In this document: positions 16,958-25,901 of the stretch, in pieces | How positions within the stretch are numbered: the first letter of the stretch is position 1 | Layout: every line of letters starts with the position of its first letter | Assembly: GCA_040400605.1 (NCBI GenBank) | Contig: JBBAPZ010000012.1 | Span: 1 to 57,263, forward strand | Direction of reading: 5' to 3' | DNA: 57,263 bases | Source of the DNA: Candidatus Sericytochromatia bacterium | GTDB lineage: Bacteria; Cyanobacteriota; Sericytochromatia; S15B-MN24; JAQBPE01 | Translations under genes and position numbers: made by a program | The notes under the pieces: model-generated | Told to the model about the DNA's origin: nothing | Seen by the model: the letters and a program-made list of their open reading frames with translations, nothing else | The model's database searches: none

Positions 16958-17908
16958 GTGTGTGAACCGGTTCTGGACGCTGAAGTTTGGACAATGGGTG
17001 CGTCAGGTCTTGTCGGTGAGCGTTTGGACCGGGCGTGCCTTGCGCGGTGGCCACAGTTTTCCCGCGCACGTGTGCAGGCTTGGATTGACACGGGGCACAT
17101 CCGGGTCAATGGTATCGCGGTCAAGCCAGCATATCGATTACGGGTAGATGACGTCATACGGCTTGAACCGCCGCCGGTGGTCGATTTGGCGGTTCAACCC
17201 GAGCCGATTCCGTTGGATGTGGTTTATGAGGATGGCGATCTCATTGTTTTGAACAAGCCGCAAGGAATGGTGGTGCATCCAGCGAATGGCGCAACGCAGG
17301 GAACGTTGGTCAATGCATTGCTTCACCATTGTACCGATCTCTCCGGGATCGGTGGCGTGAGTCGACCTGGTATCGTACACCGATTGGACAAAGATACATC
17401 TGGTCTGATGGTCGTTGCCAAACACGATCGAGCGCACATCGGACTATCGGAGCAAATTGCCAAAAAGCAAGCCCAACGGATCTATTGGGCGGTCATCCGC
17501 GGCTCCCTTGCAACACCGGTCGGGCGTATCGAGGCAGCCATAGGCCGTCATCCGCATCATAGGCAAAAAATGGCGGTTCGCCCCGATGGCAAATCTGCCG
17601 CCACGCGCCACACGACCCTTGCTACCGCGAATGGTTATTCGTTGGTCGAACTCACGCTGGAAACCGGCCGGACACACCAGATTCGCGTGCACATGGCACA
17701 TATGAATCATCCGATTGTGGGCGACCCGATCTATGGTGGTGATCGCCACTTGCCTGTCAAACTCGCAGGGCAGGCACTGCACGCCCGAGAGTTATCCTTC
17801 ACTCACCCAGTTACCGATGAAGCGTTACATTTTTTAATAGAACCACCGTCCACCATGCTTAAATTGCTCAGCCATCTTGGATTAAATCCACGGGGTGCAT
17901 CCACTTAA
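16958..17908 (+). CDS. rluD: RluA/RluD-family pseudouridine synthase with S4 domain
   Basis: Motifs ERLD (S4), VHRLDKDTSGL, TGRTHQIRVH, QALHA. Confidence 0.9.
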   Translation: MCEPVLDAEVWTMGASGLVGERLDRACLARWPQFSRARVQAWIDTGHIRVNGIAVKPAYRLRVDDVIRLEPPPVVDLAVQPEPIPLDVVYEDGDLIVLNKPQGMVVHPANGATQGTLVNALLHHCTDLSGIGGVSRPGIVHRLDKDTSGLMVVAKHDRAHIGLSEQIAKKQAQRIYWAVIRGSLATPVGRIEAAIGRHPHHRQKMAVRPDGKSAATRHTTLATANGYSLVELTLETGRTHQIRVHMAHMNHPIVGDPIYGGDRHLPVKLAGQALHARELSFTHPVTDEALHFLIEPPSTMLKLLSHLGLNPRGAST

Positions 17909-18060
17909 ATGCCGGACAAGCAAGCTTGGTGCCTTGTAAACGCATAAATCCAAGCGATGCTTGCCGTGTTTCAACAACAAGCAGTACGGACTGCAGCCGG
18001 ACGATTGGGTATCTTGACCCGAACGTTGTGTCAACTGCGCCATGCGAGACACAAATGCTG

Positions 18061-18173
18061 TGATCGGTGACCCAATCTTGGCTGTTGTTGAATAACAACA
18101 CGTGAATGCCTGAAGTTTAAATTTTGCTACACAAGTTTTGAACACAAACCCAGACGTCAGGGAACGGTGTCGC
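18061..18173 (-). repeat. Dispersed intergenic repeat family A, copy 1
   Basis: Reverse complement TGTTCAAAACTTGTGTAGCAAAATTTAAACTTCAGGCATTCACGTG...CAGCCAAGATTGGGTCACCGATCA aligns with 31411, 36423 and 51898/52081. Confidence 0.8.
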
Positions 18174-18371
18174 TATTTAATAAGATTTTTACTTTTTCTT
18201 ATATCTTTCTGAACCATTTGTGCGCTTCGTCGTGCGATATAGGTTATGACGGGAGATGGTGCGTTGGGGCATTAAGACTTGTTTTGACTGGTGCCGTCTT
18301 GGTGCTGCGGCACGCGTCGTCTCGGCTTTTGGGCGTTTGTCGTTGTGGTGGGATGGGGGGATGACGAAAGG

Positions 18372-18968
18372 ATGTTTGGCGTGAGATTGCGCGAGGGCTG
18401 GCGGCGTCACGTCGGGTGCGTCGGGGCGGTGCTGGTTTTGCTGGGCTGTGGTATCGACGGGCGTCTGGCTGGTGAGAACGTCATTGTTGCACACGATGGG
18501 GTTTCGCGCGGCGATGGCGGCCTTACGGCGGAAGGCTTGATACGTCGATTTCGGGAGTCGGATTATGTCGACTTGCTGCCGGTTCCGCAGGTTGCGTGGG
18601 ACTGGCGGACAATGGATGTTGGTGCGCGGTTTCGGATCCGTGGCAATCTGTATTATCGTCGGGTCCCACGTGATCCGGATGCACTTGAGTTGCTGATTTT
18701 GGATCAGGCTTGGTTGAGCGTGCAGTCGGGAGGGGACGAGCCTTTTGTGTTGTGCGTGCGGGGCTTTGCCAATTTTGAACTGCTGCGCGCGTGGGTGGCG
18801 GACCTAGATGCGCGACCGTATCGGCCGGATCAGGTGATAGGTGTCAACCGAAGTGAGTTGTCAACGGCGTTTGTAACTGTGGGACGGAATCGGTTCACAC
18901 GGAGTGAGCCTTTGCTGGAAGTGGACGCAATTCGGACGTTTCGCGGTTATTTGATGCGTCAGCCTTAA
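18372..18968 (+). CDS. Hypothetical lipoprotein
   Basis: ATG 18372 after GAAAGG; basic N-terminus, hydrophobic stretch and LLGC lipobox. Confidence 0.6.
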   Translation: MFGVRLREGWRRHVGCVGAVLVLLGCGIDGRLAGENVIVAHDGVSRGDGGLTAEGLIRRFRESDYVDLLPVPQVAWDWRTMDVGARFRIRGNLYYRRVPRDPDALELLILDQAWLSVQSGGDEPFVLCVRGFANFELLRAWVADLDARPYRPDQVIGVNRSELSTAFVTVGRNRFTRSEPLLEVDAIRTFRGYLMRQP

Positions 18969-19299
18969 ATATTGGCCGCACATTTTGAGGCGTTGAGGGA
19001 TAGACAATCTTCTGCGGGGTTTGATTGTTGACTGGCCACCTCACAGTTTTTTGTTGTGTCTGGATCGGGTGATATGTTGTCGCAGTTTGTTTGATGTGAC
19101 GGGTCCTGATTGAGTTGCGATTTTTATGAACAACAGGCAGGGCCTGATGGTATAACGGGGCTGTCTTGAAACGCTGTCGTGTTTTGAGTTCAAAAAATCG
19201 TGCATGTGTTGAGGCTAGGTCGTTTGTTCGGTGTGCCATTGGGGGTGGTCTTGGGTACAACATCAGCATTGACCGTGTGAAGCCGAGGTAGGTTCGTAG

Positions 19300-21546
19300 A
19301 TGACAGCCAGCGTCAAGTTTTTCTTTGTTCTGGGCGGCCACCTGCCTGAGCAGGACCTGACGCATTTTTTTGGGGGGCAAGATGATGATCCCCTTGCGGG
19401 TGTGATGATCTCTGCCCGTTTGCCGCCGATAGCAACCGATGAGTATTATCACCGCGTGTTTCCACAGGAGCCGATCACCCACCGCTACGCGCTGTTGACC
19501 GAAGAAGGGGATGCAGCTGTGCCGTTGAATCACATTGATGGGTTATGGGCGAATGTGACCAGACTCAATGTGGCGCGGTCTGTGTCAGATATCCGTGAAT
19601 CGCAGCAGGACTGGTGGCACAAGCTGGATCGATTTGTGTCGGCGATGCGGGACCATGTGAATGATGGTGATGTATTGGTGATTGACATCTCCGCAGGGAT
19701 GCGCGACGTGCCTTTGATGCTGATGATCAGTCTGATGCAGTTACGGGTCTGTTTTGAAACCCTGCACCTTCGACTGGTGACGTGTGGCAAGTTGGAAACG
19801 GGCATTGTGATGCGGGATGTTACCCGTAGTTTTCAGGTGATGGAATGGGCGTTGGCGCTGGCTGGCGTGCGGGAACAAGGGGATTTGAGGGGCTTGAAGG
19901 CGCTGGTCGCGGACTTGCGTGTTCGACGCGGGCAATCTGTTCACAATGACGTGACCGACCCGTGCTGGCAGCACTTGCAGGAACTGCACGATCAAATCGA
20001 GACACTCGAACAGGCGGTGCTTGATTGGCATTATCACGCCATACCGGCTTGCCTGGAGACGATCACGGCGTTTCCTTTACAGATACCTCAAGCGGTTGAG
20101 GGCATTGAATGCGAGTTGCCCGAGTTGTTGCTTCTTGAATTGGCACTCGCTGTCGTCACCGATTGCTTCAGGCTGCCAAGTGACGTCGGGCCCGCGACGG
20201 CGACGTGGCCTTTGTTGAATTCCGGAATTTTCATTGAGCGTTTCACGCGTTGGGGACGCTGGACGGAGGCTGTGTCGCTGGCGACGGCCTTCGTCTGTGA
20301 GCGTGCGGCTTGGTTGCTTGAGCCCTCAGATGATTCAAAAAACACTGCCCAACGTTATGAAAGGTATCAATTGGCGCTTGAAGCGGAGACGGACCACACA
20401 ACGCAAAATTTGCGGGTGCGACTGATGGCCTTGCCGCAGGGCCCCGGGCTGCTTCATGCTTTCGATGGGCTACAAAGGCTGAGACACGTGCTTTTGCACG
20501 GTCAGACGACCACTGGGAATTGGCCAAAAGACTTGGACACCGTGCGGGGGGTGTTAGAGGGTGTCGCGCAGCATTTGCGCGCGCAGACACTGATTGCTGA
20601 TGATAACGCCAAGGTGCCAAGTGTCAAGCGCGGGGGGTTGTTTTTGACACTTGGTGATTCGACGGATTATGTCTCACGCCCTGATGGTGTTCCGGATGCA
20701 GGTCCGGCCTTTTCAGAGGCGGCCGCCGCAGGACACGTTGTCCAATCGTCTGTTTCGAAGCAGCTTGCCGGAATGTCTGGTTACACACAGATGCATGCGA
20801 ACGGCCTCCGCTCATCTCGAGAAACCGGTGACGCGATTGCGGTTCCTGTCGTGACGGATTTGTCCGGACAGGAGTTCAGTCTCAACTTTGTCGATCAGGC
20901 GAATGATGACTCGCGTGATTCGAGTCATTATGCAGGTGTGATTCGGCGCATGATTGATGCGGTGCAAGACGGTGATCGGTTGATTCTGGATTTGACCCAC
21001 GGGTTGGGAGACGTCCCCGTCACGGCTTTGGGGATGGTGATTTTTCTGCGTTATGTCCGATGCGACGTCAATGTGTCACTGATCACGTACGACAACCACA
21101 CTCCCTCCGAACTGTTGAATCTCACACCGATTCGTGATTTGTTTACCCTGGCCGGTGCGCTGGACGTGCTGCGCCGGGGCGTCAATCCGCTACCATTGGC
21201 TGCTTGGCTGAAAATCCAGCAGCATGGACACGTTCAGGGCCTCGGTGATGATTTGGAACATTTGGCACTCGCATTGTTGACGCGTCGTCCGGCAGGCATC
21301 GAGGCGTGCGGTGAGGTGGTCGCAAAACGCCTGCGCGACGATCAGCAGATGGATCAGGCTTGCCAGAGCGTCCCCGGCTTGGCACTCGTGCTGGTGCAAC
21401 TGAAAGCAACCATGCCGCTCCTGCTCGCCGATGGCACATCCTTTCAGCAAACGTTCCATGGCTGGTATCACGCGCGCGGTGCACGGTTGCTTGGGCAGCG
21501 TGAACGAGGCCCACGAGCCGGGCATCTAGATGAGAACCGTTTTTAG
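19300..21546 (+). CDS. Tandem CARF (TM1812/Csx1-like) protein with central HEPN motif: CARF-HEPN-CARF
   Basis: CARF1: FFFVLG...GDVLVIDISAGMRDVPL. HEPN RxxxxH: LRHVLLHG (20482-20499). CARF2: LFLTLG...GDRLILDLTHGLGDVPV. Confidence 0.72.
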   Translation: MTASVKFFFVLGGHLPEQDLTHFFGGQDDDPLAGVMISARLPPIATDEYYHRVFPQEPITHRYALLTEEGDAAVPLNHIDGLWANVTRLNVARSVSDIRESQQDWWHKLDRFVSAMRDHVNDGDVLVIDISAGMRDVPLMLMISLMQLRVCFETLHLRLVTCGKLETGIVMRDVTRSFQVMEWALALAGVREQGDLRGLKALVADLRVRRGQSVHNDVTDPCWQHLQELHDQIETLEQAVLDWHYHAIPACLETITAFPLQIPQAVEGIECELPELLLLELALAVVTDCFRLPSDVGPATATWPLLNSGIFIERFTRWGRWTEAVSLATAFVCERAAWLLEPSDDSKNTAQRYERYQLALEAETDHTTQNLRVRLMALPQGPGLLHAFDGLQRLRHVLLHGQTTTGNWPKDLDTVRGVLEGVAQHLRAQTLIADDNAKVPSVKRGGLFLTLGDSTDYVSRPDGVPDAGPAFSEAAAAGHVVQSSVSKQLAGMSGYTQMHANGLRSSRETGDAIAVPVVTDLSGQEFSLNFVDQANDDSRDSSHYAGVIRRMIDAVQDGDRLILDLTHGLGDVPVTALGMVIFLRYVRCDVNVSLITYDNHTPSELLNLTPIRDLFTLAGALDVLRRGVNPLPLAAWLKIQQHGHVQGLGDDLEHLALALLTRRPAGIEACGEVVAKRLRDDQQMDQACQSVPGLALVLVQLKATMPLLLADGTSFQQTFHGWYHARGARLLGQRERGPRAGHLDENRF

Positions 21547-21859
21547 CCGAGCAGCAACGACGCTTGGGCCGGCGGGGCTTGCTAACTTGACTTCTCGGAT
21601 GCATTGATGATCGGGGTCTTTGCATCGGTTGAAAGGGGGATTGTCTCACGAAATCTGGTCGAGCGCCTGCATCGTGTGCGAATCATCGCATTTGCCGCAT
21701 ACAGTCTGCCAGCGAGACCCCTGTTTGCAGGCGAGAAGACCGTTTGACCGGAGACCAACTGTTAACGTCGAACCGTCCTGAATCACGGATGTGGTGCGTG
21801 GTCGAGTGTCGTCTGTTTAACACCTGAAACAGCCCGTTTTTCGGCTATACCATAGTTCA

Positions 21860-22079
21860 CGGACATTGCTACGACTTGATTTCAGCGGTTACTTCGCGGA
21901 AGTCGGGAGGACTTTTCCAAGTGAAGTGAGCTGACATCGAGAATCTGAATCTGTTGGCAACCCAGTTGACCCTCGCGGCGTTGGAGACGATCACGATTCA
22001 GCGTACGGGTGTTTATCCCCTCAGCATGACGTTTGAGGCACAAGGTGCCAAGTAACGGGGAAAAAGGCGAGATAGCGTT
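21860..22079 (+). ncRNA. Candidate 6S RNA-like rod-shaped non-coding RNA
   Basis: Nested pairings GCTA/TAGC, GTTACTT(21888)/AAGTAAC(22050), GACATC/GGTGTT and CTGAATC/GATTCAG, with side hairpins in the central region. Upstream TACCAT -10-like box, downstream terminator, no credible ORF. Confidence 0.55.
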
Positions 22080-22106
22080 GGGAGGGGCGATCGCCCCTCC
22101 CATTTT
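22079..22106 (+). terminator. Intrinsic terminator (perfect palindrome centred on GCGATCGC)
   Basis: TGGGAGGGGCGATCGCCCCTCCCA followed by TTTT. Confidence 0.75.
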
Positions 22107-22240
22107 GTTCGATAGTCCAGACTTTAGACGTGGTGGTGACGTAAATCATCGTCTTTGGTAACAACTTTGATATCATGGTCGCTGAATTGACCCTTATTAT
22201 GCGACCTATGCGGCGCAGAAATCGTGCGAAAGGAATTGCG

Positions 22241-23080
22241 ATGACTGTCCAGGCGCGCGCGGAACAAGAAGAGCCGTCATCGGTAACCCTATCGGCTTAC
22301 CAGGAGTTGCCCTTCAGTTTGACGCCCAATCCGAGGTTTTTGCACATTGGTACACAACATCGTTCCGCCATCGCCAAGAGCTTGTATCTGGTCGAACACC
22401 GCCAAGGCTTGACGGTTATCTTTGGTGATGTCGGGATGGGAAAAACAACGGTTAGTCGTCATCTGCTGCATCACTTTCTGGATTATCCCGAAAAATATGT
22501 GGTGGCTTATTTACCCAATCCGTCGTATCCATCGGAGCATCAATTGTTGGTGTCGATTTGCGAGGAGTTCGGCATTGCACCGGCGCGCAGCAAACAGGCG
22601 ACTTTGGTACGATTGAACGGTTTCTTTGTGGACAACTATCAAAACGGGCAAATCACGGTTTTACTGATTGACGAAGCGCAGATGCTAAAAGGCCAGCAGT
22701 TTGAATTGTTGCGTCAGTTGCTTAACTTCGAAACGGATCAGCACAAATTAATTCAGATTGTGATGTTTGGCCAAAATGAGCTTCGCACCAAGTTAAAACC
22801 CAAGAAGGCCTTGTGTTCGCGCATCGTGACCCGGTCAACCCTTGAACCGCTCGACATGGCTGACACAGAGGCGATGATTCGTTTTCGCCTCCAAGTCGCC
22901 GGATACGCGCCGGATTACTTCAGTGGCGCAGCGATCAAGCGGATTTACGACGCCAGTAATGGCATTCCACGCGAGATCAATAAAATTTGTCTCTCCGCCT
23001 TCACGCTCGCCGCTTTCAGTCACACAGGCGGTGTATCGCTGGACCTGGTGGAACAGGCCATCGAGGAGATAGGATCATGA
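22241..23080 (+). CDS. ExeA/GspA-like AAA+ ATPase (no TM or peptidoglycan-binding tail)
   Basis: Motifs PFSLTPNPRF, Walker A GDVGMGKT, Walker B LLIDEAQ, GQNEL, SRIV, SNGIPREIN. ATG 22241 with AAGGAA RBS. Confidence 0.88.
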   Translation: MTVQARAEQEEPSSVTLSAYQELPFSLTPNPRFLHIGTQHRSAIAKSLYLVEHRQGLTVIFGDVGMGKTTVSRHLLHHFLDYPEKYVVAYLPNPSYPSEHQLLVSICEEFGIAPARSKQATLVRLNGFFVDNYQNGQITVLLIDEAQMLKGQQFELLRQLLNFETDQHKLIQIVMFGQNELRTKLKPKKALCSRIVTRSTLEPLDMADTEAMIRFRLQVAGYAPDYFSGAAIKRIYDASNGIPREINKICLSAFTLAAFSHTGGVSLDLVEQAIEEIGS

Positions 23081-24075
23081 CGCTGACTGGTTCCAAGCGC
23101 GGCACATTTGCTGCGATGTATGAAGCAAGCAAGGACTTGAGCCTGGATGGCAACCCTCGCCAGGTGCGCCTCGAGGCGTTGGAGGTCCTGCCTGACCAAC
23201 CACGACGAGCCTTTGACGACACGTCGCTACAGGAACTCGCAGACAGCATCAAAGCGCACGGCATTTTACAACCGCTACTGGTGCGGATTGTGCCAGGCAG
23301 TTCACCGACCCGGTATCAGATTGTTGCGGGGGAGCGCCGTTTTCGGGCAGCAAAAATGGCGACGCTGGGCAGCGTTCCGGTTGTAATCAAGAACCTGAAT
23401 GACCAAGCGGCCCTTGAAGTGGCTTTGATCGAAAACCTGCAACGCGACGATATCTCGCCCCTGGAGGAAGCCTACACGCTGAAAAAAATCCTGGATTCGA
23501 GTGAGATGAGCCATCGCGAATTGGGCGAGCGGATCGGCAAAACCAAAGCCTACGTGGAACAGCGCGTCCGACTACTCCGGTATCCGGAAGAGATTCGCAA
23601 CGCGCTCGGTGGTGAACCTGAGACCGCTGCCAGTTTCACGCCCGGTCATGCCAAAGCGGTCGTGCAGCTCGATGATCGCGAAACACGTGAAGCCGCCATC
23701 ACATTGATTCAGCGCGGGGGTCTTTCAGTGCGCGAAGCCGAAAGACGGGTGCAACAACTGAAACAATTGGAAGCCAGCCCTGCGCTGCAGCCTGCTCGTC
23801 ACCGCGCGCTGCAAACAGCAATCCTAAGCCCGGAAGGTTTGAATGATCAAAGCCTGGCCCGACAATTGCAAACGCAAACCACCACCAAGGCGTTGCAAGC
23901 GGCAACAGACCTGGTCGATTGCCGGTCTTTGATGCTTGTCCAACACCTCCAAAAAGCGACCGCAAATGAGGATTGGTGCTTGGATCGCCAAGCACTCATT
24001 GACTTGCTGCGCCAAGATTTGCGAATGCTCGCCCAAGGAAAGGGCTCAGGTGGCGATCAACAGCTCGGCTTGTAA
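23077..24075 (+). CDS. ParB/Spo0J-family CTPase with HTH
   Basis: Motifs QPRRAFD, ELADSIKAHGILQPLLVR, AGERRFRAA, ALIENLQRDD and HTH SHRELGERIGKTKAYV. ATGA overlap with the ATPase stop. Confidence 0.92.
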   Translation: MTLTGSKRGTFAAMYEASKDLSLDGNPRQVRLEALEVLPDQPRRAFDDTSLQELADSIKAHGILQPLLVRIVPGSSPTRYQIVAGERRFRAAKMATLGSVPVVIKNLNDQAALEVALIENLQRDDISPLEEAYTLKKILDSSEMSHRELGERIGKTKAYVEQRVRLLRYPEEIRNALGGEPETAASFTPGHAKAVVQLDDRETREAAITLIQRGGLSVREAERRVQQLKQLEASPALQPARHRALQTAILSPEGLNDQSLARQLQTQTTTKALQAATDLVDCRSLMLVQHLQKATANEDWCLDRQALIDLLRQDLRMLAQGKGSGGDQQLGL

Positions 24076-24800: not shown

Positions 24801-25901
24801 ATGGCCAGCAAAGAGCCCGTCTATGGCGTTCCCGTGAGAGAACCGGTTTATCATTTTCCGTGGCAGACGCTGGATGCCATCATTGCGGGGCGTTCGGCGA
24901 TTGACCTTGAGGGACTTCGTCTGACGACTGCCCAGGCGGCAAATGAATTCATCGCCTCTTACGGTTACAACGTGACAGATGCCGCTGACAGTGCCGAAAT
25001 GGCCCAAATTTGGGATTTGAGTGCGGCATTCATCGCGACGTCTTTGTTGCCTTACGCAGAGGTCACGCACGTACCGTTTGAGTTGCCGCACGAGTATCCA
25101 GACCTTCTTTTGATCGCCTCCACGCCGGACCACCCATTACGGAATTGGGCGTGCTCATTTCTGCGAGTGAGTCACGCCGTCGTCCACGCCCGTTACGGCC
25201 AAGATATGCAGGCATTGGAGAACGGACGAATCCAACTGCTGGAACACTTGAAGCCACACCTGACTGCAGGCGCGGCGGGGACGGTGGTGAGCGATGGCGA
25301 GATGACCATTCCGCTAGTCAGACTCGACTTCAAGACGGAGAAACCGTGGGAAAGCCTTGTTCTGAAGCTCCTTCACAAGGTGGATAACGTGGCTACCGAG
25401 ATTTATGATCATTTGGGCCTGCGGTTTGTGACGCCGGATAAAGCGTATGCGTTGTTGTTGTTGAAGTATTTCAGACTCAACAATCTGTTCTGTTTTGCTA
25501 ACATCAAGCCCAGTCGTTCACTCAATACGTTGGTCGATCTCCTTGAGTTCAAAAGCGGGTTTCAGGAACTCGAATCGGCCTACCTGGCGGGCGAACTCAG
25601 CTTCAAGGCTTTCCAATCCGCCGTTCACAAGCTCGGCACCAACCCTGACACCGGGCATGGGCGCAATCCACATTCTGACCAAGGCTACCAAACCATGCAA
25701 TTTACGGCCCGGATGATGGTGCGTGCCATCCACGGTGATACCATCACCCGAACCTTTATACCCTTTGAAGTTCAAATTATGGACGAAGCCGCTTATCACG
25801 CCAATCGCGCGGGCAAGGCCGAACACGGCGCCTACCGGGAACGGCAGCGCCTCGCCGTGTGCCGCCGTGTGTTTCCCTGGGCACTACCAAACGACACCTA
25901 A
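24801..25901 (+). CDS. TIGR04552-like protein (RelA/SpoT-type nucleotidyltransferase fold)
   Basis: K..ESLVLKLLHK, IYDHLGLRFV, GYQTMQFT, FEVQIMD and H.AYR..Q match the synthetase-like motif order. N-terminal GRSAID region is as I recall for this family. Confidence 0.7.
   Translation: MASKEPVYGVPVREPVYHFPWQTLDAIIAGRSAIDLEGLRLTTAQAANEFIASYGYNVTDAADSAEMAQIWDLSAAFIATSLLPYAEVTHVPFELPHEYPDLLLIASTPDHPLRNWACSFLRVSHAVVHARYGQDMQALENGRIQLLEHLKPHLTAGAAGTVVSDGEMTIPLVRLDFKTEKPWESLVLKLLHKVDNVATEIYDHLGLRFVTPDKAYALLLLKYFRLNNLFCFANIKPSRSLNTLVDLLEFKSGFQELESAYLAGELSFKAFQSAVHKLGTNPDTGHGRNPHSDQGYQTMQFTARMMVRAIHGDTITRTFIPFEVQIMDEAAYHANRAGKAEHGAYRERQRLAVCRRVFPWALPNDT

Follow-up and report, generated by a model that had tools for sequence, protein, structure and literature searches.

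A truncated tandem Csx1 protein in a Sericytochromatia genome, a probable remnant without RNase activity from a type III system since lost

The open reading frame P0001, situated in a window of 57,263 nucleotides on contig JBBAPZ010000012.1 of a Candidatus Sericytochromatia bacterium, encodes a TIGR02221-type Csx1 protein duplicated in tandem, (CARF-helical-HEPN)x2, of which three quarters are present and the second HEPN domain (HEPN2) is absent. We consider it somewhat more probable than all the alternatives combined (roughly 55%) that this protein is a relic, dead as an RNase, of a type III system that has been lost. The ancestor, a Csx1 gene of TIGR02221 type, was duplicated in tandem, giving a one-chain pseudo-dimer with a CARF1/CARF2 pocket and a HEPN1/HEPN2 RNase site. 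The type III system would then have been lost in the P0001 lineage and the effector disarmed, HEPN2 being cut off and the HEPN1 Asn and the CARF2 Arg being lost. The surviving protein would still fold as a CARF1-CARF2 pair, most likely without cOA-triggered RNA cleavage, and would be decaying slowly under weak residual selection, chiefly on repeat 1. The tandem ancestry, the altered residues, the rapid divergence, and the failure to find a cyclase in the assembly are observations; that RNase activity and an ancestral type III partner were lost, and in what order, is inferred from them.

P0001 is a genuine ORF of 748 amino acid residues. All of the motifs named in an earlier note on this DNA are present in its translation: FFFVLG (19318-19335) and LFLTLG (20638-20655), DISAGMRDVP (at 19684) and DLTHGLGDVP (at 20989), and RHVLLH (at 20482). 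The two TM1812-type CARF units described there are likewise confirmed, each half separately matching the TIGR02221/TM1812 CARF model with E values of 1.3e-6 and 2.6e-10. The whole protein scores 66.7 bits against TIGR02221, which is below the curated cut-off of 76.25 that full-length relatives pass with 80.4, 145.8, and 104.6 bits; the PADLOC Csx1/CARF2 models match it with E values down to 2.4e-28. The AlphaFold model, built on a 5-row alignment, has a mean pLDDT of 61 and a pTM of 0.64, and its first fold matches are Csx1/Csm6 structures. Repeat 1 (aa 3-431) superimposes on the entire Csx1 part of Marinitoga Csx1-Crn2 (8y7g_B, residues 2-435) with a Z score of 14.3 and an rmsd of 4.3 over 378 aligned residues, and the inter-CARF part (aa 178-431) aligns with the HTH-HEPN portion of Csx1 (8y7f_A, Z 11.7). 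The CARF-HEPN-CARF architecture proposed in the earlier note gives way to the order CARF-helical-HEPN-CARF-helical, that is, a truncated tandem (Table 1). An assembly artefact at the end of the ORF was excluded: that end is present both in L006 (99.86% identity across 19,852 bases) and in one X3-run contig (18350-21903), each of which differs at one place in the gene.

Table 1. Features of the P0001 locus, in coordinates of the window
Feature	Position	Strand	Remark
Truncated tandem Csx1, CARF1-helical1-HEPN1-CARF2-helical2-tail	19300..21546	+	P0001 ORF; from fold and relatives
CARF1, ~aa 1-195	19300..19884	+	Motif I divergent; boundary approximate
Helical (HTH-like) connector, repeat 1, ~aa 196-300	19885..20199	+	8y75 CARF-HTH aligned to aa 3-291
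HEPN1, ~aa 301-430	20200..20589	+	Motif at 20482-20499
CARF2, ~aa 441-625	20620..21174	+	N-terminal half fast-evolving, modelled poorly
Helical connector, repeat 2	21175..21489	+	Similarity to P0008 stops at aa 728 (21483), the expected HEPN2 start
Short tail without counterpart in full-length relatives	21490..21546	+	First part common to sister orthologue
Non-coding, expected place of HEPN2	21547..21873		No statistically supported remnant
Short 36-base multi-copy repeat	21874..21909		At least 5 other copies in the genome
Orphan 3' end (final 46 codons plus terminator hairpin) from a multi-copy gene family	21915..22102	+	Copies on contigs C10 and C55
Upstream orphan ORF, 198 aa	18372..18968	+	One homologue found, in the sister species, 85.9%

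A phmmer search returned 17 relatives of P0001. P0003, the orthologue in a sister species (83.3% identity), is truncated identically, and since the first part of the tail is common to both proteins the loss of HEPN2 predates their split. Complete tandems with two CARF and two HEPN motifs are P0008 (870 aa, 42% identity), P0010 (969 aa), and P0012 (888 aa), all of which keep both HEPN motifs and both pocket Arg residues; P0008, the nearest full-length relative, has R-N-x3-H in each HEPN and Arg in each pocket. P0009 looks like a repeat-2 fragment, and the remaining 12 are single units of 391-460 residues. Both quick trees, one of 41 rows and one of 23, unite the first repeats in a clade of their own (SH-aLRT 92-93) and the second repeats in another (91-93). 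The 41-row tree places both repeats inside a Csx1 subclade (99) together with single-unit proteins of two genomes of the same order (G013 and G019). A duplication private to P0001 and P0003, with their repeats held together, was rejected (p-AU 8.5e-93), as was one private to P0001, P0003, P0008, and P0009 (p 0.01). From the repeat clades and the rejected topologies it therefore follows that Csx1 underwent a single old tandem duplication, after which HEPN2 was lost in the P0001 lineage; the deep nodes are uncertain because the branches are long. The stem leading to P0001 and P0003 measures 0.89-0.93 for repeat 1 and 1.11-1.55 for repeat 2, against 0.29-0.33 and 0.26-0.44 for the branches of P0008 itself. 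An alignment search for further tandem relatives recovered only P0008, P0010, and P0012, and the tandem form was absent from the 19 genome loci and the viral contigs searched, from 400 other genomes of the phylum, and from 46 others of the class.

A motif II pattern containing Thr was used to find 37 related units; the motif II His is present in 29 of these and the Arg in 36. Asn follows the Arg in 34 of 36 HEPN motifs. Unit 1 of P0001 reads S-A-G-M-R and retains R135; unit 2 reads T-H-G-L-G and carries R570G, so that the pocket Arg is found in one half only. The earlier note had seen complementary degeneration here, unit 1 keeping the Arg and losing TH, unit 2 keeping THG and losing the Arg. 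Its reading of unit 2 stands, and so does the Arg of unit 1, but the loss in unit 1 was overstated: the change of T to S is conservative, and because the His is variable among related units (it is also missing from repeat 1 of P0008, P0010, and P0012) unit 1 is close to canonical. Complementarity is further contradicted by the position of the losses, which fall on the long branch that leads to the truncated proteins. Departures from near-invariant columns in P0001 are T131S, Y162C (in CARF1), N396H, R570G, G598D, and W617L, with G598D confined to P0001. Motif I and the adenine-stacking aromatic residue (Y164 in Marinitoga) are lost from both units. As for the RxxxxH motif of HEPN1, which the earlier note expected to be conserved, R395 and H400 are retained; its second position is not, the family Asn being replaced by His396 in P0001 and by Tyr in the sister orthologue. 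With HEPN2 absent, one R-x4-H-type motif is left per chain, where two R-N-x3-H motifs are expected of Csx1.

Mapped onto Marinitoga Csx1, R135 and position 570 correspond to R132, and position 396 to N402. As described in PMC11317161, R132A abolishes and N402A almost abolishes the RNase activity of that enzyme, whose active site requires two R-x4-H motifs; for Csm6-2, the description in PMC13187428 has R295, H369, R723, and H730 all as essential. Because the equivalents of the altered residues are needed in Marinitoga Csx1, and both HEPN motifs in Csm6-2, RNase activity of P0001 is unlikely by analogy.

Repeats 1 and 2 were predicted to pair with a score of 0.79, whereas the best control reached 0.00; of 157 solved complexes 116 attain that mark, as do 2 of 215 mismatched pairs, though these figures apply only roughly here. 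The runs share no fewer than 74% of contacts, and partner pLDDT does not fall below 58. Since tandem halves resemble solved Csx1 dimers, a pass denotes likeness and not binding. An intramolecular CARF1-CARF2 pair is nevertheless plausible from the model, and there is precedent in Csm6-2 (as presented in PMC13187428); to this extent the pseudo-dimer proposed in the earlier note is credible, whereas the evolved complementary asymmetry attached to it is not supported. In full, the proposal has an intramolecular pocket of asymmetric form respond to a non-canonical nucleotide and control an RNase, which would here have to be built from the HEPN1 domains of separate chains. The modelled CARF pair, the retention of R395 and H400, and the conservative nature of HEPN1 substitutions (P 0.003) are congruent with it, as are the higher oligomers reported for Csm6-2 and Csx1-Crn2 in the accounts of PMC13187428 and PMC11317161. 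But the asymmetry is mostly lineage-specific loss, position 396 varies freely, the allosteric path of Csx1 acts by moving both HEPNs of a single CARF dimer and P0001 has no HEPN2, and no cyclase was found in the assembly; with the pocket Arg and HEPN Asn altered at positions needed in Marinitoga Csx1 (PMC11317161), we regard such gating as improbable.

The sister orthologue (P0007) and the orthologues of seven neighbors would appear to represent the same locus in the sister species. The CARF protein, at 83.3% identity between the two species, has diverged faster than all six housekeeping neighbors compared (92.8-98.1%, values biased upward since the orthologues were found via 90% clusters). 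The alignment contains 121 differences in 730 residues with neither indel nor stop; under neutral simulation the probability of no stop is 0.003-0.005 for the whole frame and 0.09 for repeat 2. Substitutions in repeat 1 are conservative (mean BLOSUM +0.30 versus -0.54 under neutrality, 0 of 3000 simulations as good), while those in repeat 2 (-0.40 versus -0.57, P 0.20) are no better than neutral. Repeat 1 thus looks to be under purifying selection and repeat 2 near neutral. Fast divergence and the state of repeat 2 speak for the relic; the open frame, the purifying selection on repeat 1, the conserved CARF1 core and interface residues, and the survival of R135, R395, and H400 speak against it.

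That same contrast in selection could mean that repeat 1 has reverted to an ordinary two-chain Csx1 homodimer and that repeat 2 is a dispensable appendage. Repeat 1 is complete, has a Csx1-like fold, and keeps R135, R395, and H400. Set against this are the His or Tyr in place of Asn396, the Y162C substitution, the failure to find cas10 in the genome, and the prediction that the dimer surface is occupied by the linked repeat 2, and we hold this reversion to be improbable.

The CARF1 core (aa 116-200, a region picked post hoc) has 2 differences in 85 positions, which matches housekeeping conservation, and CARF2 aa 553-582 are identical between the sister orthologues. Residues at the predicted interface vary less than others (12 of 126 versus 106 of 598, p 0.024). 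These observations, with the modelled pair (0.79 versus 0.00), would suit a protein exapted as a nuclease-free binder, in which the CARF1-CARF2 pair with its one Arg serves as a regulator, a sponge, or a ring nuclease for some nucleotide of lesser size or asymmetric shape, which it would bind or degrade, while HEPN1 has a purely structural part. Tandem CARFs are able to switch ligand, as the account of Csm6-2 indicates (PMC13187428). Such a role is hard to reconcile with the loss of motif I and the adenine-stacking aromatic from both units, with the difference of 26 of 80 positions across aa 441-520, and with the signal source not being found in searches of the genome; moreover, recombination could have produced the invariant stretch, and the conserved core is explicable by either selection or recombination. 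We therefore treat exaptation of this kind as doubtful beside the relic reading.

The earlier note found no cas10 in the window, and this holds for the genome as well: the assembly (G000) gave no match to Csm1, Cmr2, Cas10 palm2, RAMP, mCpol, or SMODS, in searches whose controls were positive. Searches for DncV-like and SAVED proteins also gave no match, but carry no weight, their controls being equally silent. A type III locus could be missing from the assembly, since this is 94.55% complete in 174 contigs, and the possibility counts against the relic. The genome does possess a CRISPR array (~387-784) and its sole cas1 (1486-2187) on the 7-kb contig C57 (L036), with cas2-like and Cas9-like ORFs adjoining the array; on its translation the locus would be type II. 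C57 could be bin contamination.

Of the 47 genomes representing the class, 16 gave RAMP matches; RAMPs were found in none of the seven others of the host's family, and in none of ten of family f3. Single-unit homologues adjoin Cmr2, or lie within ~7 kb of it, in genomes G038 and G031, and a long GGDD ORF (recognized by the motif only) is near 9 of the 19 genome loci. The possibility, raised in the earlier note, that homologues are ordinary type III accessories is hence partly borne out, in that the nearest single-unit homologues in the class reside in type III-B loci. Within f3, G013 (99% complete) carries, close to the end of a contig, an intact single-unit Csx1 with cas1 and an APE2256 CARF gene as neighbors (L031, 661-3297 and 6798-7457), and neither Cmr2 nor RAMP was found in that genome. 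G019, of the same order as the P0001 host, has a 157-residue stump of a single-unit Csx1 CARF (L033, 8775-9245), and cas1, Cmr2, and RAMP were not found there; G026 has a homologue piece at a contig edge. This pattern fits repeated loss of type III loci, and the stump, as an example of such decay elsewhere, counts in favor of the relic, although it leaves room for a Cas10-independent role of the Csx1 subclade.

The P0001 gene is located among housekeeping genes, with no type III-D locus, RAMP, or cas10 found there, and was not found in seven other genomes of the family. It lies at a rearrangement breakpoint; in four of six relatives examined, the gene at 528-1541 of the window precedes the AAA gene (22175) by 1.4-1.8 kb. 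A decayed HEPN2 downstream was sought by tblastn, with nothing significant among the matches listed. Nor did a frameshift-aware profile alignment recover one (13.6 versus a shuffle mean of 15.3, 114 of 150 shuffles being as high), and a motif PSSM gave P 0.41 and failed to pick the in-frame RRTVLNHG at 21766. The latter, spotted post hoc, is 102 codons past W722 (109-113 in four relatives) and is only suggestive of a HEPN2 remnant. On C10 another copy of the 36-base repeat lies close to a DDE transposase ORF, at a distance of ~60 bases, from which we surmise that the repeat is probably an IS end remnant; together with the codon part of the orphan gene end (21915-22052) it marks the junction. 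That codon part and the segment 2-328 (minus strand) are the end and start pieces of one lipoprotein-like multi-copy family, and bracket a block rearranged relative to the relatives. A recent foreign island was rejected on the basis of GC3 (0.62 versus 0.55-0.69 in neighbors) and the existence of the sister orthologue.

Other features of the locus may be recorded. By its gene content the host is probably a relative of cyanobacteria that does not photosynthesize. The upstream 198-residue ORF diverges as fast as the CARF gene. Positions 22241-24075 encode an ExeA-like AAA ATPase followed by ParB; the ATPase is conserved, with 77-81% identity, in each of the seven further genomes from the family. 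A TIGR04562-named protein (24801-25901) with a weak RelA/SpoT Pfam match (E 0.014) is kept in relatives and is a possible nucleotide-synthesizing neighbor, with no link to the CARF gene. Rfam gave no match in 17900-22300, and promoter and terminator counts are at chance level.

Marinitoga Csx1-Crn2 (PDB 8Y7G/8Y75) is the best fold match (Z 14.3-14.5) as well as the best profile match (E 3e-29), each repeat of P0001 being a CARF-helical-HEPN-family unit of this kind. It differs in that P0001 has two repeats per chain, lacks HEPN2, has the R132 and N402 equivalents altered, and is without Crn2, and that a type III locus was not found. PADLOC models CARF2--CARF_HEPN_CARF (PDLC01838-01840, 518-547 positions) bear an identical domain string and match with E values down to 3.5e-17, but their best stretches cover CARF parts only, whereas in P0001 CARF2 arose by duplication and has a helical connector of its own. 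The nuclease domains of Can1 are of the PD-(D/E)xK type. In P0001 the inter-CARF part aligns with Csx1 HTH-HEPN and not with such a nuclease; what is shared is the presence of two CARFs per chain, Can1 being described in PMC11229360 as a monomer.

A tandem CARF-HEPN protein with an asymmetric pocket is already known in Csm6-2 (PMC11229360). The enzyme of Actinomyces procaprae (PDB 9W3U-W) is described as CARF-HEPN-CARF-HEPN with a composite asymmetric pocket, as Csm6-derived, and as found in type III-D loci (PMC11229360, PMC13187428); by the latter account, fusion in tandem makes the pocket asymmetric and confers specificity for cA5. Full-length P0008, P0010, and P0012 share this plan, and P0001 does so without HEPN2. 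By comparison, both repeats of P0001 nest among TIGR02221 Csx1 units in the tree. No Csm6-2 chain was among the sequence-search matches listed, and the P0008 model gives a loose fold match to 9w3w_A (Z 10.5, rmsd 15.6, 479 aligned). Tandem Csx1 was not found in the literature searched, which comprised main texts with few subscription papers among them (proteins of this kind may be listed in supplements on CARF classification or in classes derived for PADLOC), and a full-text search for "CARF-HEPN-CARF" returned only PMC11229360. P0008/P0024, P0010, and P0012/P0025, read as intact (CARF-helical-HEPN)x2 proteins with both RxxxxH motifs, are candidate analogues of Csm6-2. The newer item is this intact tandem Csx1 family, which, as far as sequences can tell, would parallel the cA5-sensing Csm6-2 with a probably independent origin. 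A bolder proposal, which we consider unlikely, is that this is a second independent single-chain tandem CARF-HEPN lineage, arising from Csx1 and maybe reading an odd-numbered or asymmetric messenger, and that in the P0001 lineage, after HEPN2 was dropped, the protein was retained in the absence of Cas10 as a one-Arg CARF pseudo-dimer binding a different nucleotide signal. It would then be a domesticated CRISPR effector, acting as a Cas10-independent sensor or sponge.

As a relic, P0001 would offer a clean snapshot of a toxic type III effector disarmed once its cyclase had gone, yet with a conserved CARF1 core. If instead it does bind a nucleotide without Cas10, this would point to an unknown signal. 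The intact tandem Csx1 proteins permit a test of whether independent fusion from a cA4 family shifts the ligand, and single-chain RNases are useful in diagnostics.
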